Counted from the stretch's first letter, positions 7,612-41,689 are shown. The stretch is 64,000 nucleotides of DNA from Archaeoglobaceae archaeon (GCA_026986375.1 JALSOQ010000010.1:26998-90997), one strand, 5' to 3'. Numbers and translations: made by a program. Notes: generated by a model not told the origin, from the sequence alone.

Positions 7612-9165
7612 ATGCTCATTATAATGTTTAAAATAGCTCTGATGGAGCTCAAAAGGAAGAGGTGGGACAGGAGGTTCTTTTCAATTCTGATATTACTGGC
7701 CATTGTTTCCGTTGCCCTCTCAATTCATTCTATTTCGGAGGGAGTAAAGATAGATAGGGAAATATACACGATAAACGTCCGCGTGGATGATCCGAAGTTC
7801 GTAGTGACGAAAAATCCAGATGTAGTTGTATCGGACGGGAACGTTTTCGTTAAAGGTGATCTGAAATCTTTATCCGCCTTCGACGAGCTCAGAAATTACC
7901 TCAGAAGGCTGTATGACGAGTGGATCTACGAGAAGTTCGACGATTCTGCTTTCCCCGTTTTACTCAGGGTCGTAAGGATACCCACAAAAGCTGAAACGTT
8001 CCTTCCGAAACCTAAAAAGGTCGTCGTCAAAGAGAAAAGTGTAAGGGGGGTCTTAAAGAAGACGGAACGGGAGAAAATCGTAAAGACTACTCCAAAGATG
8101 TTTGCCGGAAATTTCAGTAAGAGCAATGTGAGTTTGAATTTCCTTACACCAGAGCAACTCAGACCTCCAAGCCTACTGGAGAAGATAATATACGCTTTCG
8201 CTTTCGTAATTCCGGTATACTTCGTAGTTCAGGTTTACTCATCCTCAGCCGTAGAGGACAAGATAAAGAGGAGACTGGATCTTCTGTTCGTTGCGAAAGA
8301 TGAGTGGAAGGTCTTCGCCGGAAAGATAATACCTTATTTTGTGCTTTCATCACTGTTAGCGATCGTAATTCTAACTGTTTTCGGAAAACCCCTCGGAGTA
8401 CCTCTCCTCCTTCCCGTAATTATCTTCATGTTCGCCTTGAGCACATTCACCGCGATGATTTCGAGGAGCTACAGGGAAATGACCTTTTTAACCATAATCC
8501 TGTCGATTCTCGTAACCATATATCTCTTCATTCCGGCCGTATTCAACGTAATGCAGTTCAGCAAGATCTCGCCCATAACACTCCTACTCGAAGATAAATA
8601 CGGACTCAAGGAATACCTGATCGCGACCCTTCAATTTTACGTTATGTCTGCGGTTCTTTTCCACCTATCCATAAATTCGATCGAAATCATGCACTCGAAG
8701 TCCAATCCTATCGATAAAGTCGTTCAAATTTCCGTGAGGACGGTAAATCGCTACGAACTCGTCCTAATCGCATCTCTTCTATCCATTCCTTTCGTCTTCT
8801 TCATCGAGTTCTTCACCCTCTCCCTCATATTCGCTTTCAAATACGCTCTGATTGTGGTAATACTGTTGATAGGCGTTATCGAGGAGTTCTTCAAATCCGT
8901 TCTGATATATTCGGGGATTAGGAACGGTCTGAACCCATATGCGTGTGCTTTTCTGTCAGCGATCGGTTTCTTCTTGGGGGAGAAGGGCGTTCTATTTTCG
9001 ATGGTTTCCCTCAAATACGTTAAGTTCACACTAATCCCCCTGATGGCTCATCTCTTAGCTTCTATAATCTTCGTCTTAACGCTTAGATTCGGATTTAAGA
9101 GAGCGTTGATCATGGCTTCCTCGTTTCACGCGATCTACGACTGGGTGGTTCTATGCTTAGCGTAG
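7612..9165 (+). CDS. polytopic membrane protein with a C-terminal PrsW-like intramembrane protease module
   Basis: Many TM helices. The C-terminal region carries IEEFFK (EExxK), GFFLGEKG and FHAIYDW (HxxxD), resembling PrsW family motifs. Divergent from the ABC ATPase gene. Confidence 0.5.
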   Translation: MLIIMFKIALMELKRKRWDRRFFSILILLAIVSVALSIHSISEGVKIDREIYTINVRVDDPKFVVTKNPDVVVSDGNVFVKGDLKSLSAFDELRNYLRRLYDEWIYEKFDDSAFPVLLRVVRIPTKAETFLPKPKKVVVKEKSVRGVLKKTEREKIVKTTPKMFAGNFSKSNVSLNFLTPEQLRPPSLLEKIIYAFAFVIPVYFVVQVYSSSAVEDKIKRRLDLLFVAKDEWKVFAGKIIPYFVLSSLLAIVILTVFGKPLGVPLLLPVIIFMFALSTFTAMISRSYREMTFLTIILSILVTIYLFIPAVFNVMQFSKISPITLLLEDKYGLKEYLIATLQFYVMSAVLFHLSINSIEIMHSKSNPIDKVVQISVRTVNRYELVLIASLLSIPFVFFIEFFTLSLIFAFKYALIVVILLIGVIEEFFKSVLIYSGIRNGLNPYACAFLSAIGFFLGEKGVLFSMVSLKYVKFTLIPLMAHLLASIIFVLTLRFGFKRALIMASSFHAIYDWVVLCLA

Positions 9166-20166: not shown

Positions 20167-20250
20167 CGCCGGGGGTGGGATTCGAACCCACGCGTCCCTT
20201 ACGGGACACGGGCTCTCCAGGCCCGCGCCTTACCACTCGGCAACCCCGGC
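20167..20250 (-). tRNA. tRNA-Ser (anticodon GGA)
   Basis: Reverse complement folds as GCCGGGG/CCCCGGC acceptor, anticodon stem CGGGC/GCCCG with loop CUGGAGA, a long variable arm, and T arm GTGGG-TTCGAAT-CCCAC. No encoded CCA. Confidence 0.9.
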
Positions 20251-21217: not shown

Positions 21218-21807
21218 GCGTCCCTTCCGAATCTGAACAGTTCGTCCTCCTTTTTTATCCTGATGATTACGTCGTAGAACATTCTAACTATAATTTCCAA
21301 ATTCTTGTCGTATATGTGTTCAGGACATGTGCTGAGGAGAGTTATATCCTTCGGAATCGCGTCGTATAGCTCCATCAACCCTCTTAGTATTTCCTTCCCG
21401 TATATGACGGGAATCAGATGCATTCCGAAGAACAGGAGCAAGTCGTTCCCCTTCATCTTTCTAAATATCTGCTCCATTCTGACGAACCCTTCTTCTATAT
21501 CGTCGTAAGATATGAACTCGTGCAGTTCTCCGAAAGGAACTTCGTAGCTCTTACCTATTTTAATAACCTTCACGTTGTCTAAAACTTCAGCGATGTCCCT
21601 GTTTCGGGAAACAGATCTGTAAATCTTATCGAGACTTCTACTTACGGTTTCAGAGAATATTAAAACGTATTTGTCTTTGAATCCGAATTTGGGGATGAAG
21701 TGATAGAATATGAACGTGACCGTAGGATACTGTGAATCGTAAACTATTCTCGTTCTCAGATTTTCTAACTTCAATACGAGTTCGTCGATGCTCTCTGTGA
21801 CATCCAT
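21121..21807 (-). CDS. hypothetical protein
   Basis: 228-aa ORF with protein-like composition and no motif I recognise. Its 3' end overlaps the cbiB 3' end by 97 nt (convergent). Confidence 0.4.
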   Translation of the reverse strand: MDVTESIDELVLKLENLRTRIVYDSQYPTVTFIFYHFIPKFGFKDKYVLIFSETVSRSLDKIYRSVSRNRDIAEVLDNVKVIKIGKSYEVPFGELHEFISYDDIEEGFVRMEQIFRKMKGNDLLLFFGMHLIPVIYGKEILRGLMELYDAIPKDITLLSTCPEHIYDKNLEIIVRMFYDVIIRIKKEDELFRFGRDAYLIGVEQSAIPEVKPRFGRYVIDSTGRFMRV

Positions 21808-26064: not shown

Positions 26065-26100
26065 AACTTTTATAAGTTCGGCATCCAAACGATCTTAAGC

Positions 26101-26153
26101 CGATGATGAGCTAATCCGCACCTGAGCCGTGATGAGGCCTGTACGGACTGAGG
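26101..26153 (+). ncRNA. C/D box sRNA
   Basis: C ATGATGA 26103-26109, 12-nt guide, D' CTGA 26122-26125, 4-nt loop, C' TGATGA 26130-26135, 12-nt guide, D CTGA 26148-26151. Confidence 0.8.
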
Positions 26154-27211
26154 TCTATGACATCTATTTTCTTAAACTTGCAGAAGTCCTTAAGATCCCT
26201 CCTGTAGTCCCCGTATGCTAAAACGATGTGGTTTCCCAAGCTGTTCTCGACGAATTCATCGACGTCGAAGAAGGGTCTAACTTCCACCTGAGTTCTGCAG
26301 AGTCCTTTTTCGCTTAAGTTCCTCGTTATCTCTCCAAGAGCGATCAGCATTCTCTTTTTTCCGTATCTCGCCAACGTGACGACCTCCCTCCTCATTTTTC
26401 CCCTCACAGCCTTTCCTTTTCCCGATTCCGCATGGATGGTCATTTCGTATGATTCTACCATTGAAAGCGGGACGGTGCAGTGCGCAAGGACTATTCCGTC
26501 TATTCTGCAAACGTTGGCCATCCAGCAAGGTTTCCCCGTTATAGCCCTCAGAATCATCATCGTCAGTATGGCTCCGATGTCCCCTTCGCATCCGGCCGGA
26601 ATCTCTTCGTTAAGCTTTGCCATTGCCAGACAGGCGGTTTTACCGAATTCGAGCAGATCGAAGCACCTTACGGTTACTGCGGACAGTCTGTATTTCCTCA
26701 CGATATCCTTCAAAGCTTCGTAGATGTCTTTTCCGATCAGTTCGTCCATTCCTATCTCCACCACTTCCACGCCCAGATCATAGGCATCTTCATAGTCCGA
26801 GCTGAGCAACCACTCCGAAATACCCCCAACGACCCCGAGTCTTTGCTTCGAATTCAGAAAGTTGCAGATTCCGATGAACCTCGAAACGTGATCGAGGATC
26901 TCACTTCCTATCGGCGAATAGACGAGCTTTACCCTATCCCTGTAAACCGAATAAACCTCCAACGCGGAAGGGAGGGAGTTGTGATTTGGAAGAGCCCATA
27001 TCATTACGGGCTTTTCGGTGGACTCTATAACGTTCGCGATGATTTTCTCGGTTCCTCCGGTGGCCGGGACTATTATAACGCCATCCTCCACCTTTACTTC
27101 CTCGAATTCAGTCAGAAGGAGTGTTTTCATTCCCAGCAGAGATTCCACCCTCTCCTTGACCCCTCTTCCTATCTCAGCCTGCAGTTTCGACGAGACGACC
27201 AAGCAGAGCAT
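26111..27211 (-). CDS. hypothetical protein, possibly sugar (fucose/arabinose) isomerase-like
   Basis: 366-aa ORF with normal composition; the family assignment is only a weak impression. Its last 14 or so codons are antisense to the C/D sRNA at 26101-26153. Confidence 0.35.
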   Translation of the reverse strand: MLCLVVSSKLQAEIGRGVKERVESLLGMKTLLLTEFEEVKVEDGVIIVPATGGTEKIIANVIESTEKPVMIWALPNHNSLPSALEVYSVYRDRVKLVYSPIGSEILDHVSRFIGICNFLNSKQRLGVVGGISEWLLSSDYEDAYDLGVEVVEIGMDELIGKDIYEALKDIVRKYRLSAVTVRCFDLLEFGKTACLAMAKLNEEIPAGCEGDIGAILTMMILRAITGKPCWMANVCRIDGIVLAHCTVPLSMVESYEMTIHAESGKGKAVRGKMRREVVTLARYGKKRMLIALGEITRNLSEKGLCRTQVEVRPFFDVDEFVENSLGNHIVLAYGDYRRDLKDFCKFKKIDVIDLSPYRPHHGSGAD

Positions 27212-28978: not shown

Positions 28979-29048
28979 ATACCATCCTAATTCATCGGAT
29001 TATTTAACCTTTGAGAAAAAATTTTAACCTTAAGGGATAACGGGTTGC

Positions 29049-29453
29049 ATGGAGAGGCCTATGGGTGTAACGCTGTTGGCGATACTGAACGCCGTTTTCG
29101 GAATGCTGTTCGTATTGGCTGGGCTATCCTTCTTCATGTATAAACCGATTTACGTCGAACTTATAAGGACGAGGATGGCGCACATGCCAATGCCGATTTC
29201 GGAAAAGGAGCTTCTGGCCTTTCTGAACGTATTCGCGATTTCTTCGATAATCGGAGGAATTATCGGAATCTTGGTCGCTTTCGGACTTTGGATGGGTTTC
29301 AGATGGGCTTGGTGGGTTTACATGGTTCTCTTGGGACTAAACTTGATCTCCGCCTTCCTTAGCCTACCTCAGGGGATAATCGGAATAGCGATAGTGCTGA
29401 TCATAATGTTTTATATGACGAGGCCTCACGTGAGGCGATACTTCAACGTGTGA
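29049..29453 (+). CDS. membrane protein (hypothetical)
   Basis: 134 aa with four hydrophobic helices. Confidence 0.4.
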   Translation: MERPMGVTLLAILNAVFGMLFVLAGLSFFMYKPIYVELIRTRMAHMPMPISEKELLAFLNVFAISSIIGGIIGILVAFGLWMGFRWAWWVYMVLLGLNLISAFLSLPQGIIGIAIVLIIMFYMTRPHVRRYFNV

Positions 29454-30274
29454 GAACCGTCGCAACTTTCGGCTTTAAATTCAAATCCCTCCCTGCAGAA
29501 CGCGTAGCTAATTCCCATTTCTTCGCACCTTTCCGCAATCGGCCTTAAGATTTTCAACCTCAGTTCTTTGGGCATGTAGAGGTATGACCCCACTCTTTCG
29601 GTGTAAATTTTCCTATACTTCTCAACGAGTTCGGGAAAAACCTTCGAGAACCTCGCCATTATATCCCTTCTGAGCTTCAGCGTGGAAGTCACGACGTGAT
29701 CTACGAAATCGCACGTCTCCAAAACCTTCATGGCCTCATCTTCGGTCAGAAAGGGAATCACCGGATCCAACCTCAAGATTACCGGGATTCCGGCATCTTT
29801 AAGCCTTTTTAGCGCCTCTATCCTCCTTTCGGGCTTAGGTGCGTTCGGCTCGATTTTCGATGCTATGGAATCGGATAGGCATGTCACGGTTACGCTCACA
29901 GCACACCTCATTTCCGAAAGGATGTCTACGTCCCTCGCAACTATGTCGCTTTTGGTAACGATTAGCAGTCTGACGTCGTAGTCTTTCATGATTTCGAGGC
30001 ATCTCCTCGTCACTTCGAGCGACATCTCGGCTGGAGGATAGGGATCGCTACTGTTCGACATCGAAATAAGAGCGTTCGCCGGTAGCTTCTGCAGATCCTT
30101 CTCAAGCTTTCTGAAAAGATCTTTTTTGAGCCTTAGGCGGTGGAACTTGGGAATGTAGGTTGCGTAACAGTAGATGCAGTCGTGAGCGCAACCGGTGTAG
30201 GGGTTGAACGAGAACTTCGGAGGGCACGTGCAGAGCTTCGACTTCCAAGGGTCGAAGGGTTTGACGTAGTGCAT
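29426..30274 (-). CDS. radical SAM protein (SplB/SPL-like family)
   Basis: GCAHDCIYCYA CxxxCxxC motif; 282 aa. Confidence 0.7.
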   Translation of the reverse strand: MHYVKPFDPWKSKLCTCPPKFSFNPYTGCAHDCIYCYATYIPKFHRLRLKKDLFRKLEKDLQKLPANALISMSNSSDPYPPAEMSLEVTRRCLEIMKDYDVRLLIVTKSDIVARDVDILSEMRCAVSVTVTCLSDSIASKIEPNAPKPERRIEALKRLKDAGIPVILRLDPVIPFLTEDEAMKVLETCDFVDHVVTSTLKLRRDIMARFSKVFPELVEKYRKIYTERVGSYLYMPKELRLKILRPIAERCEEMGISYAFCREGFEFKAESCDGSHTLKYRLT

Positions 30275-30306
30275 GATGTGTGGTATTCGTATCTGGAAAA
30301 ATCGTT

Positions 30307-30645
30307 TCAGGTGGCGAGACCGATAAGCGTCAGGATTATCATCGGAACTGCCGTGAAGAATGTCATGGCGTAGAATATCTGACTTTCGTAGCCCCTCCTC
30401 ATGGTGTGAACCACGGTTGTGAGGTGTATCAGGTATATTACCGTCGCGGCCATGAATAATACTGGCTCGGATTTCAGAAATGATGGTAGGATGCAGTGCA
30501 CGTAGAGAACGGTCGTGAATGCGGGAAGGGGTTTCAAATTTGCTCTATCGTCCCTCTTAATCGGTTTGAGTTTAATCTCCACTCTCTCGCCGCCGTAATA
30601 CCTAATCACACACCATTCGACGCTTTCGCATTTCGGGCACCTCAA
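30307..30645 (-). CDS. small membrane protein with an N-terminal CxxC (hypothetical)
   Basis: MRCPKCES start followed by two TM helices. ATGA-type overlap with the upstream small ORF. Confidence 0.35.
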   Translation of the reverse strand: MRCPKCESVEWCVIRYYGGERVEIKLKPIKRDDRANLKPLPAFTTVLYVHCILPSFLKSEPVLFMAATVIYLIHLTTVVHTMRRGYESQIFYAMTFFTAVPMIILTLIGLAT

Positions 30646-30893
30646 AAGCTTGTAGTACGTTTGGTGAGGTGATAGAACGGAGTCCGAAAAGTTCGGTTTG
30701 AAAGTGTGCCCTGTATTTTACCGTAAATATGTCTTATGAGCACCATCACTACGAATACAACGTAAGCGATGACCAACGGTTTCAGACTTTCTGGAAGCAC
30801 TATTGCCATGAAGATTGTTGGAGGAACTGCGAGGATGAAGGTCAAAAACATGAAGCGTAAAAGTGGATCAGCCATGAATCTGGATCTCATCAA
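30642..30893 (-). CDS. small membrane protein (hypothetical)
   Basis: 83 aa with two TM helices; translationally coupled to 30307-30645. Confidence 0.35.
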   Translation of the reverse strand: MMRSRFMADPLLRFMFLTFILAVPPTIFMAIVLPESLKPLVIAYVVFVVMVLIRHIYGKIQGTLSNRTFRTPFYHLTKRTTSF

Positions 30894-30970
30894 CGATATT
30901 TGAAACTTTCAGATACGCCCATTGCGATTATTAGATCGTGTTAAGTCTAATTTTCCGATTAAATCCTCAG

Positions 30971-31081
30971 CTAATGACAGTAAAATTTAAAACTTCCTGC
31001 TTTGGATTGTATTGCCAAAGAACATCGATTACTTCTTTTGTGTGCGCAAGGAAAAGGATTATCGCATATACACATTTTCAT
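30971..31081 (-). CDS. candidate 36-aa cysteine-rich small protein (MKMCICDNPFPCAHKRSNRCSLAIQSKAGSFKFYCH)
   Basis: Not in the ORF track (<60 aa). ATG at 31081 with GGAGGT 6 nt upstream, the same RBS type as the other island genes; TAG stop at 30971-30973. Confidence 0.25.
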   Translation of the reverse strand: MKMCICDNPFPCAHKRSNRCSLAIQSKAGSFKFYCH

Positions 31082-31128
31082 GCTTTAACCTCCTTAATTA
31101 TTTTTATTTTATAAAAATTTAAAAATAA

Positions 31129-32009
31129 TTATTTAGTTCGTGCATAATCACAGATGTCTCTTAGAGGGCATTCGGGACATTTTGGATCGTGTTCTTCACA
31201 CTACTTTCTTCCGACGTTCCAAAACAGTGTGTCAATTCTTGCGGGGAATTCTGGAAAGATGAATCTCGCAATAAGTTGAATATCCTTGTCTACTTGATCA
31301 GTTTTTCTATATTTCCAATACAGATACCATGGTATCCATCCTATATTTTTGAAAACTCTACTAGCGACTTTTCTAACGTGAACATCGATTGGAATGGGAA
31401 TGTATTCCTTACCTTCATCTGTAACTTTAAAGTTAGGTAGTTTTTCTTTAATTTGATCGAACCATGGGTGTCTCGGCATCAGACCATTTTCCCTGTATAT
31501 AAAATCTCTTACGAGAACGCTTGCATTCTTCTCGCCGATACCAGGTATATTTCTAAACATAAAGTATAGCTCTATGCAACTATATTCTCTGTTCTCAAAC
31601 ATAGTTATTAGGTGTTTGATTTTTGAAATTTTGAAATTAATGCTTTGTTTATATCCCTTGAAACGCCATTTATATAGTCCTCACAGTCTTTTTCAGAGCA
31701 TTTACTGGAAAACTTGTCAGAAAAATACTCCCTCACTAAGCTTTTGATATCTGCTGAAAGTATTTCATTTGGTTCTAAGCTTCCAATTCGTTCAAGAAGC
31801 CAATGTGGAAATTCAAATGCATGATCGGCACTTTTAAGCCCATATCTGTTGCATATGAAACCCAATAGCGGTGCAAAGTCGTAATTGCTTAAAGTTTCAT
31901 AAGCTTCTTTTTTCAAGTCCATCCAAGCTTCTTTACAAAATTCCTTTTCCCACTTTTCGCAGATTTTTCTAATCTCCTCTACCTTCGTCTTAAAATCCTC
32001 AAATTGCAC
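31129..32009 (-). pseudogene. endonuclease III-type HhH-GPD/[4Fe-4S] DNA glycosylase gene in three fragments. Probably a pseudogene; recoding is the alternative.
   Basis: Fragment 1 is 32009-31608 (N-terminal helices). TAA plus 2 nt and a frame change follow. Fragment 2 is 31602-31204 (IPGIGEKNASVL HhH with Lys, PIDVHVRKV Asp motif, ...FWNVGRK). An in-frame TAG (31203-31201) follows. Fragment 3 is CEEHDPKCPECPLRDICDYARTK (31200-31132), a perfect C-x6-C-x2-C-x5-C motif, then TAA. Confidence 0.6.
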
Positions 32010-32080
32010 TTTATCACCTCCACTAATTATTTAATTATTTTAATAAAAAATAAAGGTAAAATTAAAAATTTATATAAAAA

Positions 32081-32671
32081 TTAAATCATTGTTGGCTCCC
32101 AAAATGCAATCCAGACTTTTATCATTTTCTCGATAAGACTTTTTCTTTCAGATAGTAGTGGTCTTTCGGAATATTTCTCACCCAAGTATATCCTTAAACC
32201 TTCTCTACCAGTTTTAAGACTCAATCCTAACTTTCTCGCAATCTCTTCCATTCTTTCTTCTGGAATCTTCATTTTGGATTTGTCGATAATACCCCGAACT
32301 ATTCCGTATTTCTGTTTTACGAATATCTCATTGTTCTCGTCTGCCCATATGTCTTTAGCCTTTCTTGCGTTGAGGTAAGTAGATATGGATTTTGCTCCAC
32401 CTATCCATCCATCAATGTTCTTTTTCCCCCACCACATTTCAAATCTATATAATTTACCGTTTACATCCGCTAAGACATCCAAAACTTCCAAAATATTATC
32501 CAATGCCTGTTTTTTCTCTTCATTCGATAAAACAGCGTATGCCGGTTCTTTTTTCGTTTGCTTAATTTCGAGAATTTTTACATCTAATCTGCTATTACCT
32601 TCAGAAGATTTTTCATCCGTTTGTTGTATTATATAAATCCAAGCACCGCAGTTTGGACACCTTATTTTCAT
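32081..32671 (-). CDS. hypothetical protein with an N-terminal CxxC
   Basis: 196-aa ORF (MKIRCPNCGAW...) with GAGGTGA 7 nt upstream of the ATG. No recognisable domain. Confidence 0.5.
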   Translation of the reverse strand: MKIRCPNCGAWIYIIQQTDEKSSEGNSRLDVKILEIKQTKKEPAYAVLSNEEKKQALDNILEVLDVLADVNGKLYRFEMWWGKKNIDGWIGGAKSISTYLNARKAKDIWADENNEIFVKQKYGIVRGIIDKSKMKIPEERMEEIARKLGLSLKTGREGLRIYLGEKYSERPLLSERKSLIEKMIKVWIAFWEPTMI

Positions 32672-32811
32672 CTTTTTATCACCTCAAAATTACGTTGTAG
32701 AAAGCTAATTTAAATTTTTTGGTAGAAGATGATTAGAAGGTGTTAGTAAGGTAAGAGTAGATAATCTTTATTTAATAAAATCTAAAAATAAATTTAAAAA
32801 ATTTAAAAATT

Positions 32812-33486
32812 TTAAGGATCATTTAGAAGTCTTTTAACTTCTTCTATGAACGTTTTTGGATCGTTTTTAGCCAGATTTCTTAAACGCTCTCCATTTCTTG
32901 CTCTTATTTCGAAAAAGGCATCGATGTATGGGTAATCTTCTAATTTAACTTTAGGCAATAAACTTACTTTGAGCTCTTTTTCCAATTTCTTTAAACAAAC
33001 TTCCTTCGTCGATTTAGGTAGTTCCAAATTTTTGGGTAGTCTTAGCTTCCATAGTCTTACGAAATCGCATCCTACCCACGGTCCTATTTCTGCACCACCG
33101 AATCCGTGAGTTTTTCTTATTGCAGTGTAAAACTCCTCTGGATTTTTAATATGAGTTAAGTCGTCTCTTTGAAGGTTGTATATCTCATCTAATGCCAGTA
33201 TACTCTTCACACCATTGAGAAAACGTTTTCTGTTGAACTTTATCTTTGAAGCCAAGTCTTCCAGTTTGATATCGCTTAAACGCCTCAAATAACTTGGTAT
33301 GTTCCTTTTACTTCCAGCAATCGTTTCAAGTCTTTCAAAACATCTCTTAGCGAATTTATCACCTCTGCCAGTTGTAGTAAATAATGCATATAGCATGCCA
33401 TTGAAGGGAATATCCGAACTTTTCCACTTAAGACATTCATTTTTACCCAACAAAACCATCTTTTCAATAATATCCTTCGCATTCAT
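32812..33486 (-). CDS. hypothetical protein, possibly an HhH-GPD-like (DNA glycosylase superfamily) fold
   Basis: GGAGGTG lies 6 nt upstream of the ATG at 33486. RKTHGFGGAEIGPWVGCDFVR resembles a helix-hairpin-helix GxG loop preceded by a helical N-domain laid out like the neighbouring EndoIII-like gene. No FeS motif. Confidence 0.45.
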   Translation of the reverse strand: MNAKDIIEKMVLLGKNECLKWKSSDIPFNGMLYALFTTTGRGDKFAKRCFERLETIAGSKRNIPSYLRRLSDIKLEDLASKIKFNRKRFLNGVKSILALDEIYNLQRDDLTHIKNPEEFYTAIRKTHGFGGAEIGPWVGCDFVRLWKLRLPKNLELPKSTKEVCLKKLEKELKVSLLPKVKLEDYPYIDAFFEIRARNGERLRNLAKNDPKTFIEEVKRLLNDP

Positions 33487-33532
33487 AACCCCACCTCCCA
33501 ACCAATTTAAAGAAATTTTAAAATTAAAAATT

Positions 33533-34273
33533 TTAAAAATTTACTTCATTGGTAAACTTGGTTTTAGTTTTTATCTGCTCTATCTTTTCCAGAATCAGCG
33601 GAATGGTTAAGTTGATCGTTTTCGTCTCATCGGGCATGATCGTTTCGGTTTTAATCGCTTTTTCGCTATAACCTTGATATTCCGCAGAAACCCTTACAGT
33701 CATTGGATAATCTTCCCGATTAGTAAACTTGAACTCTATGTCTGGAAATCCCTGATGATAGAATGCGTTATAGAAAGCTAACGGATACGGTGTGTAAAAC
33801 ATCGTTTTGACTCCGAGTTTTGCTACACCGTAACCAAGTGGATAAAGAAACACTTCCTGAACCACAGAATCTAAAGTTTTACCGTTCTCTACCAGCTCTA
33901 TAACAACTCTGTACGTTTTAGCTTGATATTCAGGACTAAGAGTTAGATCAGCAGAATATGTTCCTCTCTTGTCAGCCTTCTTTACGCATTGTATTATAAC
34001 TTCATCAGTATCTGGGTCCATTAGTTTAAAGTAAAGTGTAACTGGTCGATCGGTTATGACTTCTACATTAGTTCTTACAGTGTCCTTATTTTTGTCAGCG
34101 TCTTCCGTATCGACAGCTTGGCAGTTGTAATTCTTAATGTGTGGCTTAGTTACTAAAGTCAAAGGTGTTACGGTTGGAGTAGCTATAGGTTTTACTTCTT
34201 CCTTCTCAGCACAGCCTACCAGCAATAAGGAAGTTAGGACTAAAATCAATATTGCTCGACTACCGAAAACCAT
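33533..34273 (-). CDS. putative secreted lipoprotein (hypothetical)
   Basis: Signal peptide plus lipobox-like LLLVGC, a Thr/Pro linker, then a beta-rich body. GAGGTG upstream; the ATG at 34273 is preferred over 34285. Confidence 0.6.
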   Translation of the reverse strand: MVFGSRAILILVLTSLLLVGCAEKEEVKPIATPTVTPLTLVTKPHIKNYNCQAVDTEDADKNKDTVRTNVEVITDRPVTLYFKLMDPDTDEVIIQCVKKADKRGTYSADLTLSPEYQAKTYRVVIELVENGKTLDSVVQEVFLYPLGYGVAKLGVKTMFYTPYPLAFYNAFYHQGFPDIEFKFTNREDYPMTVRVSAEYQGYSEKAIKTETIMPDETKTINLTIPLILEKIEQIKTKTKFTNEVNF

Positions 34274-34384
34274 TCTCTGCATCACCTCTCTAAATTTTTT
34301 TATTTAAATATTTTTATAAAAAAATAAAATAAAAATATTGGCAAAATATTTATGATTTTTGGGTGACTGACACAGTTTTAAAAG

Positions 34385-34665
34385 TTGGTACTGCCACCTT
34401 CTACTCTCACTGATCCTACTGGCATATCTCCCACGTTCGCCCCCGTCCCCGAATACTGCACACCGAAGTCGGGAATTTGGGGGAGTCCCCCATGCCATGA
34501 ACCACCGTGTGGACGGGCGTTGAAACCCGTCCCGATCGAACATTAGGACGGGGACGAACGCCCTTCTGCCCAACCGCCCACCACCCCCGTAAAAATCCCG
34601 GCCCGACTCGGGGGCCCACGTCGGGCCGTTCATCTCATGTTTGTCTTTGCGTATCGATGCATCCC
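34385..34665 (-). ncRNA. unclassified GC-rich structured RNA candidate (boundaries approximate)
   Basis: GC-rich block inside AT-rich DNA with no credible ORF. Helices: 34598-34606/34619-34627 (9 bp), 34510-34516/34525-34531 (7 bp), 34478-34490 hairpin, and long-range 34433-34447/34545-34559 (15 bp). The single non-Watson-Crick pair in the long helix is G:U only on the minus strand. Confidence 0.5.
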
Positions 34666-34822
34666 CACATCCGTTTGCATGTCCGAGTATATATATATTC
34701 ATGACATGATCTGAACATATATATTTATTCATATAAACGCATGCTTGCATTTATAAATGTATTTATTTTCGTCCGTAAATATAAAAAATGATATATATTT
34801 TGATTTAGAGTTCGTAAAAAAA

Positions 34823-35353
34823 CTACCCGAAATATAGCTCCTTATTTATCCAGGGGATCAAGGCCATCGTTACCGCTATCCTCGTAAGCTCTACCCTCGA
34901 AATGACGCCCTTCGTGAGGTAGTGAATGGCACCCATCCTTTCTCCGATGTTATCTATGCCCGTTATCTCCTCCATCACGTCTCCGACTTCCTTCCCCTTC
35001 AAAGCCTCCTTAACGACGCAAGGTGGAAACTCGAATCCCGGGCCGAATCCTATCGTGAACCTCTCGCCGTCGTAAACCACAGCGACTTGGAAGTCCATGT
35101 AGCCCGTCATCGTATTCTCCATACTGAATAATCCAGCTTCAACCCCTACGCTGAAGTCGCAGTCGTCAAAAGCCCTTATGGCTCTATTTATGGCTCCCCT
35201 AACGACGTCATAATCGAAGGGCTGGGGAGGAACTCCGGAATCGACCGATTTAGGTATAACTTCCACTTCACCGAAGAACCGCTCGAATGCGAGTCTTACC
35301 CCTTCAACCTTCGTCGGATTTTTCGAACCGACGACAACCCTCATCATGATCAA
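34823..35353 (-). CDS. non-canonical purine NTP phosphatase (inosine/xanthosine triphosphatase, YjjX/DUF84 family)
   Basis: The VVVGSKNPTKVEGVRLAF N-terminus is typical of the family; 176 aa. Confidence 0.7.
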   Translation of the reverse strand: MIMMRVVVGSKNPTKVEGVRLAFERFFGEVEVIPKSVDSGVPPQPFDYDVVRGAINRAIRAFDDCDFSVGVEAGLFSMENTMTGYMDFQVAVVYDGERFTIGFGPGFEFPPCVVKEALKGKEVGDVMEEITGIDNIGERMGAIHYLTKGVISRVELTRIAVTMALIPWINKELYFG

Positions 35354-36234
35354 TAACCCAACTCCCCCAATCTCTCCTTCAAAACTTCCGCGGATCTCCT
35401 GAGGTATTCAAGCTCCTCATCCGTAAATTCGTATTCTACTATTTCCTCGACGCCGTTCTTTCCTAAGATCGCCGGAACTCCTAATGCGACTCCATCGATT
35501 CCGAACTCCCCCTGCAAAACCACACTCGTAGGAATCTCCTCTCTCGTATCTTCTACTACCGCTCTGACCATCCTGTAAACGCATACTGCGGGGCCGTAAA
35601 ACGTGGCCCCCTTTCTCCTTATGACTTCCGCCGCAATCGACCTCGTATCCTCAACCGCTCTATCCAAATCCACGCTCCCCTCTACCTCCACGACGCTCTT
35701 GGGTAGGAACATCGTATCTCCGTGTTCACCCATCATGAAAACCTTCTTTGGCTTTCCACCCAAAGCGACTATTCTCTCCTTTAGTCTAACCGTGTCCAGC
35801 AAGCTACCCATTCCGAAAACCTCATTCCTCGGCTTTCCTGTTTCTTTCCACATTACGTAGGTCATAACGTCCAGAGGATTCGTAACTACGAGAATCTTGC
35901 TCTCCGGTGAGTTCTGCATTATCTTTTTGGCCACATCTTTAATTATTCCGGCATTCTTTGTAGCTAAATCCAGTCTGCTCATCCCCGGTTTTCTCGCAAT
36001 TCCCGCGGTTACGACTATTATCTCGCTACCTTTAAGCAATCCGAAATCAGAACCTCCGACGATCTTAGGATACTTCTCCAAAGCAGAAGCTGCGTGTGCC
36101 AGATCCATCGCCTCTCCAATGGCCAGATCCTCGACGATGTCTACGAGCGCCATTTCCTCGACGTTTAAGTGTTGAATACACGTGAAGGCTGAAGCCGATC
36201 CTACCCTTCCCGCTCCGACGAAACCTATTTTCAT
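35350..36234 (-). CDS. mdh: malate dehydrogenase (LDH-like MDH family)
   Basis: MKIGFVGAGRVGSA Rossmann motif, TAGIARKPGMSRLDL substrate loop, GEHGD catalytic His. Confidence 0.8.
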   Translation of the reverse strand: MKIGFVGAGRVGSASAFTCIQHLNVEEMALVDIVEDLAIGEAMDLAHAASALEKYPKIVGGSDFGLLKGSEIIVVTAGIARKPGMSRLDLATKNAGIIKDVAKKIMQNSPESKILVVTNPLDVMTYVMWKETGKPRNEVFGMGSLLDTVRLKERIVALGGKPKKVFMMGEHGDTMFLPKSVVEVEGSVDLDRAVEDTRSIAAEVIRRKGATFYGPAVCVYRMVRAVVEDTREEIPTSVVLQGEFGIDGVALGVPAILGKNGVEEIVEYEFTDEELEYLRRSAEVLKERLGELGY

Positions 36235-36261
36235 GGGCCAAAGTCACCTCCAAAAATGTAA

Positions 36262-37932
36262 CTACCAGAACCAGAATGCCAATCCACCTTCCATAACCTT
36301 CACATTTTTGAATCCGTGCCCCTCAAGAATCCTAAGAGCGTCGTAAGCTCTGCTCCCTATCTGACAGACTATGACGATCTCCTTGTCCTTAGGTATCTCG
36401 TCGAATCTATCTCTCAGCTCTTCGAGAGGAATCCTCAATAACCTCGGATCTTCGATCTTCTTGAACTTCCTGAACTCTTCTTCGCTCCTTATGTCGAGCA
36501 GAACGAAGTCCTCTCCTCTGTCGATCTTCTCTCTCACTTCAAAGCTCGAAATAGTCTTGAACAATCCGTCCCTCTTGTTCCTCGCTACATTCGCCGCGTG
36601 GATTAAAGTATCTATTGCGGTGGAGTATGGAGGAGCGTATGCTAAATCGAAGTTCGCCAGATCGTCTATCGTCGCCTTCATCTGTATGGCCGTCGCAACC
36701 ACGTCTATCCTCTTATCGACAACGCCTAAACCGACCATCTGCGCTCCCAAGAGTCTCCCGGTCTTCGCATCTGCTATCAGCTTAATCCTTATCGGCCTCT
36801 GTCCGGGCATGAAGTGCGCTCTGTCTGGCCCGGGGCAGAGTGCGGTGATGACATCGTAGCCCAACTCCTTAGCCTGCCTTTCCGTTAATCCCGTTCTCGC
36901 GACGTTTAGGTCGAAGAGCTTGAATATCGTTGTCCCTATCACACCCGGGAACTTGGATTTTCCTCCGGTCACGTTGTCCCCTATTACCCTTCCGTGCTTG
37001 TTTGCGGTCGAACCGAGGGGAGCGTAAACGGGTTTTCCGGTGATCAAATGGACGTTCTCGACGCAATCCCCTCCGGCGTATATGCTTTCATCGGAAGTCT
37101 GAAGGAACTCGTTCACCTTTATCGCTCCCGTCTCTCCAATTTCGAGCCCGCATTCTTTGGCCAGATCGACGTTCGGCCTAACTCCGACCGCCATCAGAAC
37201 CAGATTCGCCTCGATCTCCTTCGTCCCGTCGACCTTAACTCCCGTCACTCTCCCGTCCTTCGCTATTATCTCCGTAACCCTGCTCCCCGTAAGAACCTTC
37301 ACTCCCTTTTCCGCTAAATGATTCTGAACGAGCATCGCCATCTCCCTGTCGAGCAGAGCCGGAAGGACGTGATCGAGCAGTTCCACTATCGTAACCTCGA
37401 CTTCCAAGTTCGAAAGAGCTTCGGCGGTTTCCATTCCTATGAGTCCTCCACCTATTATTACCGCCTTCTCCAGAATTCCCTCATCCCACATGTCGAGGAT
37501 CTTTTCCGCATCCTCCGGATCGAAGAGAGTTACTACACCTTCAGCATCCGCATTTGGCAAATTGAGCCTTATCGGCTTAGCTCCCGTCGCTAAAACGAGG
37601 TAGTCGTAGGGCAACTCGTCCTCCTTTCCGTTTCTGACAATTTTAACTACTTTCCTATTTCTGTCTATCTCGACAGCCTTCGTTTCCGTCAGCACTTCGA
37701 TGTCCTTCACCTTTTTGAAGTAGTTTACGTCCCTAACGACTCCGGCCAGAGTCCTCCTGAGATCGTCGAGCTCGTTCACTATTCCTCCGACGTAGTATGG
37801 AAGACCGCACCTGCCCAGAGAAGGATACTTACCCGCGTCTATCACAGTAATCTTCGCCTCCGGATCTCTCCTCCTCGCTCTGCATGCAGCCTTGAGACCG
37901 CAGGCACCTCCTCCTATCACGACTATGTCCAT
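36262..37932 (-). CDS. CoA-disulfide reductase/NADH oxidase family flavoprotein with a C-terminal rhodanese domain
   Basis: VVIGGGACG FAD motif, single redox Cys context SLGRCGLPYY, second GGGLIG NAD motif, and a C-terminal rhodanese loop VIVCQIGSRA. Confidence 0.75.
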   Translation of the reverse strand: MDIVVIGGGACGLKAACRARRRDPEAKITVIDAGKYPSLGRCGLPYYVGGIVNELDDLRRTLAGVVRDVNYFKKVKDIEVLTETKAVEIDRNRKVVKIVRNGKEDELPYDYLVLATGAKPIRLNLPNADAEGVVTLFDPEDAEKILDMWDEGILEKAVIIGGGLIGMETAEALSNLEVEVTIVELLDHVLPALLDREMAMLVQNHLAEKGVKVLTGSRVTEIIAKDGRVTGVKVDGTKEIEANLVLMAVGVRPNVDLAKECGLEIGETGAIKVNEFLQTSDESIYAGGDCVENVHLITGKPVYAPLGSTANKHGRVIGDNVTGGKSKFPGVIGTTIFKLFDLNVARTGLTERQAKELGYDVITALCPGPDRAHFMPGQRPIRIKLIADAKTGRLLGAQMVGLGVVDKRIDVVATAIQMKATIDDLANFDLAYAPPYSTAIDTLIHAANVARNKRDGLFKTISSFEVREKIDRGEDFVLLDIRSEEEFRKFKKIEDPRLLRIPLEELRDRFDEIPKDKEIVIVCQIGSRAYDALRILEGHGFKNVKVMEGGLAFWFW

Positions 37933-41561: not shown

Positions 41562-41614
41562 TGTTACGATATTCTCACCAAAAATTTAAACTTGACGACA
41601 TTTGAAAAGATTAG

Positions 41615-41689
41615 CGGACCCGGCGGGATTTGAACCCGCGACCTTGGGCTTAGGAGGCCCACGCCCTATCCAAGCTAGGCTACGGGTCC
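41615..41689 (-). tRNA. tRNA-Arg (anticodon CCU)
   Basis: Reverse complement folds as GGACCCG/CGGGTCC acceptor, anticodon stem TGGGC/GCCCA with loop CUCCUAA, and T arm GCGGG-TTCAAAT-CCCGC. No encoded CCA. Confidence 0.9.

Follow-up and report, generated by a model that had tools for sequence, protein, structure and literature searches.

An AT-rich gene cassette of probable foreign origin at a variable chromosomal junction in an Archaeoglobaceae archaeon

We analyzed a 64,000-nucleotide stretch of DNA, hereafter the window, from an Archaeoglobaceae archaeon (GCA_026986375.1, JALSOQ010000010.1:26998-90997), in which an AT-rich cassette carrying a few small genes and a GC-rich element lies between a nucleoside triphosphatase (NTPase) gene and a gene for a radical-SAM protein. 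Positions are counted from the first nucleotide of the window, which corresponds to C10:26998-90997 of a metagenome assembly of 1,459,177 bp in 30 contigs; this assembly provided the genome scale for the composition tests. The guanine-plus-cytosine (GC) content drops from approximately 0.49 to 0.30-0.39 within about 30.8-34.4 kb of the window, and to 0.28 in one 400-nt segment. The block is the lowest-GC 3.5-kb segment of the genome, with a value of 0.347 compared to a mean of 0.480 and a standard deviation (SD) of 0.028 (approximately -4.8 SD), and it ranks third of 790 genome segments by tetranucleotide distance. GC at the third codon position is 0.32-0.35 in the island genes and 0.55-0.64 in the flanking genes. 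The original prediction, which was made from the sequence, had described an abrupt drop in GC and a compositionally foreign island at this location, and these measurements bear that description out. The two most deviant segments of the genome by tetranucleotide composition, above the island in rank, are located at C16:85.7-91 kb.

The features of the locus are listed in Table 1. All of the island open reading frames (ORFs) are on the minus strand, and they are separated by spacers consisting solely of A and T (31090-31127, 32027-32071, 32759-32803, 33504-33533 and 34300-34337). Shine-Dalgarno sequences of the GGAGGTGAT type are found 3-8 nt ahead of the starts at 34273/34282, 33486, 32671, 32009 and 31081. 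Of five GAGGTG motifs on the coding strand, four are directly ahead of a start, and the opposite strand has none. The predicted arrangement of minus-strand ORFs, A/T spacers and GGAGGTG-type Shine-Dalgarno sequences was thus found where it had been placed. The prediction of five genes holds as regards the gene calls, but two of the five are decayed, the glycosylase gene being a pseudogene and the lipoprotein gene being truncated. The smallest ORF, which is Cys-rich, has no match in Pfam.

Table 1. Features of the AT-rich cassette and its flanks (window positions).
Feature	Position	Strand	Basis or remark
AT-rich accessory cassette proper	30913..34827	-	segment differing from the closest relative, L188
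A/T-rich leader with TATA-like runs and motif ATTTACGGACGAAAAT (34778-34756)	34641..34822	-	between NTPase stop and GC-rich element
GC-rich structured RNA candidate	34419..34640	-	folding, L040 homologue
Truncated lipoprotein gene	33533..34285	-	L034/L040 comparison
HhH-229, intact 224-aa HhH-GPD-fold protein	32812..33486	-	predicted structure
MJ0042-type CxxC zinc-finger protein, 196 aa	32081..32671	-	homologues
EndoIII-like Fe-S glycosylase pseudogene	31129..32009	-	alignment to intact L034 gene
Cys-rich ORF, 36 codons, AGGAGGT Shine-Dalgarno	30971..31081	-	sequence
Two overlapping small normal-GC ORFs	30307..30893	-	comparison with relatives
Left flank, NTPase (PF01931), conserved core gene	34823..35353	-	Pfam E 1.5e-53
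Right flank, radical-SAM gene	29426..30274	-	directly after NTPase gene in empty-site congeners

The limits of the cassette were determined by comparison with relatives. DNA homology with L188, a contig of the closest relative (radical-SAM protein at least 90% identical), extends over 29000-30912 and 34828-36500 with 85-87% identity, and there is none between these segments. Because the homology stops at 30912/30913 and 34827/34828, the cassette proper is placed at 30913-34827. The breaks fall within 20 nt of the predicted boundaries of 30895 and 34820, which therefore stand with respect to L188 but not with respect to more distant congeners; compared to these, the inserted DNA covers 30275-34822 and takes in the two small membrane ORFs at 30307-30893.

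We surveyed the junction by seeking the NTPase gene in 30 relatives and comparing the surrounding DNA; the gene was found in 24 of 31 relatives. Four genomes of the same genus (G002, G003, G004 and G007) have an empty site, with only 10-50 bp from the NTPase stop to the radical-SAM start. The original prediction had asked whether positions 30893 and 34823 are adjacent elsewhere, and the proximity of the NTPase and radical-SAM genes in these four congeners indicates that the island is not conserved there. In G001 and G005 the junction contains a different AT-rich insert of approximately 800 bp (GC 0.37) that encodes a PIN-domain protein and a ribbon-helix-helix (RHH) protein, these forming a VapBC pair. 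In L188 the junction is occupied by a gene for a 953-aa superfamily 1 (SF1) helicase, which matches the PADLOC family Mokosh MkoA with an E-value of 1.8e-78, and by a gene for a 143-aa protein. The latter gene is also found directly upstream of the radical-SAM gene in L189 (radical-SAM protein at least 90% identical), a contig that stops at this point, such that the helicase region lies outside it. Thus both of the other occupants, the MkoA-like helicase of L188 and the PIN and RHH pair of G001 and G005, are catalogued defence-type genes.

The junction exists in at least four alternative states (empty, VapBC, MkoA-like helicase and this cassette), and from the different states found among relatives it follows that the site is a cassette-replacement hotspot. 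Both marks of a horizontally acquired island, absence from the same site in relatives and deviant composition, were found. The arrangement resembles the defence-island and integration hotspots of bacteria in having a fixed core-gene junction, AT-rich cassettes that differ by strain, and a cassette without an integrase; it differs in that the host is an archaeon and in that the cargo in the window, which is partly decayed, has no match among catalogued defence systems. The L188 helicase (L188:3834-6695) has 41-45% identity to a helicase at L161:9867-11915, which is located beside an EndoIII-like gene in Methanomethylicia; both match Mokosh MkoA with E-values of about 1e-76 to 1e-78.

A potential concern with a 30-contig metagenome assembly is that the block represents an assembly chimera of the metagenome-assembled genome, or else ordinary compositional variance. 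The block is, however, a -4.8 SD outlier, and the flank homology with L188 reaches into the spacer on both sides. In addition, the HhH and CxxC proteins of the cassette are recorded on two contigs, the longer of which is 168 kb, and a syntenic relative of the module comes from independent samples. An artifact or chance variation of this kind is accordingly extremely improbable.

The small membrane ORFs beside the cassette have a history of their own. They encode an 83-aa membrane protein and a 112-aa protein with a zinc ribbon and membrane segment, and their GC is normal. The pair is patchy among relatives, being absent from G001-G007 at this site and from L189 but present in L188 with 68-85% amino acid identity, a distribution indicating that it is a separate, older insertion common to the closest relative L188. 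In L188 the pair comes after the former upstream region of the radical-SAM gene and a 32-bp repeat of that gene's opening codons; a copy of its initial 32 nt thus stands on either side of the pair (L188:7277-7308 and 8001-8032, equivalent to window positions 30243-30274), whereas the 5' arrangement of the radical-SAM gene in L189 is uninterrupted. The 32-bp duplication looks like an attachment site (att-like), situated at nt 32 inside the 5' end of the radical-SAM protein gene. The duplicated copy is gone from the window, presumably having been lost on arrival of the AT-rich cassette.

The att-like duplication next to the cassette would be in keeping with what is left of an integrated virus or plasmid after deletion of its genes for integrase and replication. 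Additional indications of this kind are a ParA gene beside a homologue of the CxxC gene in L170, and fragments of Mutator-type and IS240-type transposases near homologues in L033 and L183. The cassette itself, however, has no capsid, replication or integrase gene, and no repeat flanks it; no integrase or recombinase ORF or Pfam match was found within 30275-34822. There is no tRNA gene near the island, the closest being tRNA-Arg(CCT) at window position 41.6 kb (41614-41689). The predicted lack of an integrase, tRNA target or flanking direct repeat therefore agrees with what we found in the window. The virus link that had been suggested along with it was not substantiated. PHROGs gave only weak noise and Pfam only sub-threshold noise for the cassette proteins, a tblastn search with the intact glycosylase found no match in 50,697 phage records (INPHARED) and none in plasmids, and IMG/VR had no match to either glycosylase-fold protein family. 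We consider descent from such an integrated element quite unlikely. The window also contains a C/D box small RNA (snoPyro_CD, 47.5 bits) at 26099-26154 and a tRNA-Ser(GGA) at 20167-20250, as determined with Rfam and ARAGORN; neither adjoins the island.

The endonuclease III (EndoIII)-like gene of the cassette is found in three pieces (31608-32009, 31201-31602 and 31132-31200). These correspond to a single intact gene encoding 296 aa in L034, with identities of 72%, 83% and 78%, which confirms its prediction as a fragmented EndoIII-like glycosylase; at the DNA level the window gene is 78% identical to L034:2623-3513. Relative to L034, indels of +4 and -5 nt at 31636-31612 cause a net -1 frameshift that leads to a TAA stop, and a TGG codon for Trp has become TAG at 31203-31201, directly before the iron-sulfur (Fe-S) loop. 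Provided that the assembly is correct, this alignment indicates that the window glycosylase gene is a pseudogene. Use of TAG as a sense codon for pyrrolysine was rejected on the basis that relatives have Trp or Tyr at this position and that the frameshift is also present. The family of the 296-aa protein is tiny, a search of 1.84 billion proteins giving approximately 20 representatives at E<1e-10; in species-representative genomes it is spread over Methanomethylicia, Acidilobaceae, Ignisphaera, Desulfurococcaceae and Geocrenenecus. Thirteen family members all share G162, K164, D212 (the Asp of VPIDVHV) and C274/281/284/290, and the read-through of the window gene has IPGIGEKNA, IPIDVHV and C-X6-C-X2-C-X5-C. 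The family profile matches EndoIII structures in the PDB with an E-value of 4.7e-10; Pfam detects only the Fe-S loop (16.4 versus a gathering score of 20.5), and scores against NCBIfam mutY and nth are far under their cutoffs.

Intact relatives of the glycosylase share with the Endonuclease III/MutY Fe-S proteins of the helix-hairpin-helix (HhH)-GPD type (the Nth family) the hairpin Lys of GIGxKKA, the Asp of VPIDVHV and the C-X6-C-X2-C-X5-C loop. They differ in being extended at the N-terminus by approximately 45 residues, in having approximately 35 residues inserted between the HhH and the Asp, and in forming a tiny clade that is limited to hyperthermophilic archaea and falls under the Pfam and NCBIfam thresholds. 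In two distant Thermoproteota the EndoIII-like gene is directly followed by a convergent gene for a conserved protein of 156-169 aa (43% identity; L161:8982-9452 and L162:3944-4453). This protein has no Pfam match and a weak match to NCBIfam PRK00809 (8.5e-4), and may be a functional partner.

HhH-229, the HhH-like protein of the original prediction, was modeled with AlphaFold2. A first run with four sequences was poor, with a predicted local distance difference test score (pLDDT) of 58.6, and three distant homologues (G004, G057 and G071) were added for the final model, which has a pLDDT of 92.4 and a predicted template-modeling score (pTM) of 0.87. Foldseek comparison of this model gave template-modeling (TM) scores of 0.52-0.53 with the MutY N-domain and a 3-methyladenine (3mA) glycosylase (2h56) and of 0.47-0.49 with EndoIII; in the viral library (BFVD), the top two matches were a 3mA glycosylase-like protein and EndoIII, with probabilities of 0.98-1.00. 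None of the Foldseek E-values was at or below 1e-3. The model supports the prediction, indicating a two-domain helical HhH-GPD (DNA glycosylase) fold that includes an HhH hairpin but lacks an Fe-S cluster. HhH-229 resembles the HhH-GPD proteins without Fe-S of the Ogg/AlkA/MagIII/MBD4 type in its two-lobed all-helical fold (TM 0.45-0.53) and its G-h-G hairpin, but has no detectable sequence similarity to them and does not conserve the canonical Asp position. In six homologues the column of this Asp, approximately 20 residues after the hairpin, contains E, G or R, and the invariant Asp is instead D189, found in PYxD. Judging from this alignment, HhH-229 may be non-catalytic or may use another residue. 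Profile-profile comparison of HhH-229 with the EndoIII-like family was not significant.

The presence of two glycosylase-type proteins could be explained if the cassette were laterally spread DNA-repair cargo, contributing base-excision enzymes with which thermophiles counter heat-induced base damage and having no role in conflict with viruses. The EndoIII-like family keeps the catalytic Lys and Asp of EndoIII as well as the C-X6-C-X2-C-X5-C cluster, it is confined to hyperthermophilic archaea, and in L162 a gene of the uracil-DNA glycosylase (UDG) superfamily adjoins. The distribution is, however, very sparse and patchy, given the small number of representatives of the EndoIII-like family and the presence of HhH-229 in only five of 96 genomes of the class. 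The setting in an AT-rich island and the ready pseudogenisation also fit dispensable conflict genes better. We view a pure repair role as possible, although on balance rather improbable.

The GC-rich block between the leader and the lipoprotein gene is 222 nt in length with a GC content of 0.65, and contains a hairpin on the 5' side, the G-rich sequence GGGGGUGGUGGGCGGUUGGGCA, and a domain of approximately 95 nt that is closed by a 17-bp helix. Its folding energy is -123.9 kcal/mol on the minus strand compared to -93.7 kcal/mol on the plus strand, with a modest z-score of -1.8. A homologous block occurs in L040 at the same position, upstream of the lipoprotein gene and after an AT-rich leader. 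This leader shares the motif TTACGGACGA(CG)AAAAT, and a near-copy AAATTACGGACGACGAAAAT of the window's ATTTACGGACGAAAAT precedes the L040 element; the genome of the window has no second copy of ATTTACGGACGAAAAT elsewhere. A covariance model built from the single window sequence finds L040:3323-3487 with E-values of 3e-4 to 1e-3. In the 17-bp helix, nine of the 17 pairs are changed on both sides between the window and L040 and yet all 17 are still paired, compared to 0-2 in slid controls; this alignment was fitted to the covariance model, which favours the structure. The GC-rich RNA candidate of the original prediction is thereby strengthened by a homologue with a compensated helix.

Searches for further homologues of the element found none. 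Rfam gave no match at gathering thresholds and noise only at E<=5 for the window block and its L040 homologue, and BLAST against 96 genomes of the class found no homologue. A search of 400 genomes of the phylum with covariance model R1 gave only two marginal matches (E 0.01-0.03), in larger genomes, which were taken as chance. The pattern GGGGNGGTGGGYGGTN{0,1}GGGCA proved too loose for a metagenome scan, yielding 120 unrelated G-rich matches, and a tighter sequence pattern had no match in IMG/VR. We consider it credible that the block is a new structured RNA, albeit one thinly sampled, with a single homologue. It is similar to the Hgc RNAs of Rfam, GC-rich non-coding RNAs of AT-rich hyperthermophiles, in being a GC-rich, helix-dense and ORF-free block amid AT-rich DNA and in having its own A/T-rich promoter-like and oligo-T flanks. 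It is unlike them in being island-borne and not part of the core genome, in lacking an Rfam family even under relaxed conditions, and in having one homologue. L040 has a further GC-rich block, smaller than the first, at L040:3800-3900, where it separates the RNA homologue from the lipoprotein gene; it has no counterpart in the window and no Rfam match.

The lipoprotein gene has its likely start at 34273 or 34282, and the prediction of a lipoprotein is upheld by a signal peptide and the lipobox LLVGC (MVFGSRAILILVLTSLLLVGC, as read from the sequence), for which L040 has LILAGC. The protein is 87% identical to those of L034 and L040 over residues 47-245, but stops at residue 250 whereas the L040 version runs to residue 501. 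By this comparison the window lipoprotein is truncated and retains only the N-terminal half of a 501-aa protein. The missing half contains, in L040, a transglutaminase-like domain with weak matches to Transglut_core and DUF553, and the missing approximately 250 aa carry a region that matches the N-terminal 300 positions of the NCBIfam family 'anti-phage ProA' with an E-value of 2.7e-27; a literature search on 'ProA anti-phage' found nothing relevant. The host has a native paralogue of the lipoprotein, 346 aa in length, at C9:27409-28449.

The predicted CxxC protein proved to be a relative of the MJ0042 family. It has nine homologues, including the product of a Methanocaldococcus jannaschii chromosomal gene beside Pus10 with 50% identity, and it scores 17.5 bits against the TIGR02098 zinc finger, under the cutoff of 20.9. 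With the MJ0042 family (TIGR02098, and the M. jannaschii gene beside Pus10) it shares 50% identity over its full length and an N-terminal CxxC zinc ribbon; the contexts differ, the genes of the window and of the vent contigs being in mobile or defence-type surroundings and that of M. jannaschii among translation genes. The middle gene of the module varies by copy. The 196-aa MJ0042-like gene of the window is unrelated to the middle genes of L034 and L033, L034 having a 115-aa CxxC gene at this position, and the breakpoints around the middle gene fall in the A/T spacers.

Several of these genes have relatives with defence-type neighbors, and this raises the question of whether the cassette is, or was, an anti-virus module, with the two HhH-GPD-fold proteins recognising or excising modified bases in the DNA of invaders, possibly with the RNA, the hotspot then being a defence island. 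The occupation of the same hotspot in relatives by an MkoA-like helicase or VapBC is consistent with this possibility. In all three long contexts of the glycosylase family there are genes of this type beside it: in L161 these are Csx1/CARF genes and an MkoA-like helicase, in L162 a DrmD/BrxH-like SNF2 helicase that carries a NOV_C domain (together with UDG), and in L166 a type II methyltransferase. In L170 an MJ0042 homologue lies between a type IIG restriction-modification (RM)-like gene and the ParA gene, with a ThsB-like TIR gene near, and the full-length lipoprotein has the 300-aa region in common with 'anti-phage ProA'. However, PADLOC assigned no family to the cassette proteins or to the intact L034 and L040 versions, the glycosylase in the window is broken and its lipoprotein is without the ProA-like region, and the HhH-229 partner is missing beside the distant glycosylase homologues. 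The association is also drawn from a handful of loci, and the native C9 lipoprotein paralogue belongs to the same widespread family. A defence function, past or present, is thus unlikely on present evidence. The idea of a defence-type module, which the original prediction had offered as speculation, retains circumstantial backing from the occupants of the hotspot and the neighbors in relatives, and it receives none from PADLOC for the cassette itself.

Copies of the module elsewhere bear on its mobility and origin. Within its own genome the cassette is unique, save for the lipoprotein paralogue on C9. Homologues of HhH-229 form only three clusters among 5.8 billion proteins, all of them on short hydrothermal-vent contigs. 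L034 is syntenic with the window, having the lipoprotein, a 225-aa HhH protein (54% identity), its CxxC gene and the intact EndoIII-like gene. L040 overlaps with the organism of L034 and extends upstream through the full lipoprotein gene, the GC-rich block, a phosphatase gene and two genes for unknown proteins to an epimerase gene at its end, the product of which is 86% identical to that of C28:9184-9921 in the genome of the window. Based on the location beside this epimerase gene, the core module occupies a different chromosomal site in the congener, and this provides direct evidence that the module moves. A homologue of HhH-229 in another congener (L181, in G004:C60, 147-902; 47% identity) is a solitary AT-rich gene with a GC of 0.35 that abuts ABC-permease genes of normal GC; its position is another sign that the HhH-229 gene may move as a small unit. 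Four paralogues of an unknown 256-aa protein encoded in the L040 island are present in the genome of the window, with 24-43% identity (one at window positions of about 21235-21789, or C10:48232-48786, and the others on C13, C18 and C12). Additional low-GC islands (0.355-0.378) are present in this genome at C5:16.5-36 kb and C5:85-87.5 kb, and their GC-normalised tetranucleotide signature resembles that of the cassette (r 0.62-0.71).

Our interpretation is that the block is an acquired, replaceable and partly decayed accessory cassette in a hotspot between the NTPase and radical-SAM genes, to which we assign a probability of approximately 0.8 on the grounds of its foreign composition, the site without the cassette in relatives, the alternative occupants, the homology to islands in vent metagenomes, and the gene lesions. 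The core would consist of the GC-rich structured RNA, the lipoprotein, the HhH-GPD-fold protein and the EndoIII-like Fe-S glycosylase, circulating among hydrothermal-vent archaea. Entry or exchange probably occurs by recombination, with no resident integrase, from an AT-rich flexible gene pool. The cassette would now be decaying in this genome, with the glycosylase gene reduced to a pseudogene, the lipoprotein truncated, and the middle gene swapped for one of the MJ0042 type. The multi-state hotspot, the second site of the module in a congener, the truncation of the lipoprotein and the older membrane-ORF insertion were not foreseen by the original prediction.

Some observations do not fit this interpretation easily. 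The window has no integrase, transposase, tRNA target or direct repeat bounding the cassette. The frameshift and the TAG codon of the glycosylase gene are read from the assembly alone. Searches of PADLOC, PHROGs, phage, plasmid and IMG/VR data give nothing for the cassette's own proteins. As to the donor, the named relatives closest to the MJ0042-type gene and to the lipoprotein belong to Methanococcales, in contrast to the tetranucleotide signature: the GC-normalised correlation is 0.75 with L040/L034 and 0.71 with the host's C5 islands but 0.53 with M. jannaschii. A direct recent transfer from Methanocaldococcus is therefore unsupported by the signature.

The ancestral module probably acted on DNA bases, by excision or recognition of damaged or modified bases. 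Given the neighborhoods of its relatives and the other occupants of the hotspot, a defence-island gene pool is the most plausible setting for such a module, and accessory repair of heat-damaged bases is equally compatible with the enzymology. A more far-reaching proposal is that the RNA, the HhH-GPD protein without the canonical Asp and the divergent EndoIII-like enzyme constitute a new mobile system in hyperthermophilic archaea; its base-flipping enzymes, perhaps together with the RNA, would attack the modified DNA of invaders or modify it anew (a glycosylase- or base-exchange-based defence, or DNA hypermodification), the copy in the window being decayed. We offer this as speculation and judge it very unlikely.

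Insertion hotspots have been mapped thoroughly in bacteria but far less fully in archaea. The junction between the NTPase and radical-SAM genes documents a multi-state insertion hotspot in an archaeal genus, with empty, VapBC, Mokosh-like helicase and AT-rich cassette states. The cassette also reveals two very small clades of uncharacterised proteins with a DNA-glycosylase fold, along with an unclassified candidate structured RNA that appears to travel with them among vent archaea. Should the intact L034/L040 module act on modified DNA, archaeal defence would gain a mechanism of the glycosylase type; should it not, the locus still illustrates the entry of flexible AT-rich genes into a streamlined thermophile genome and their decay there.

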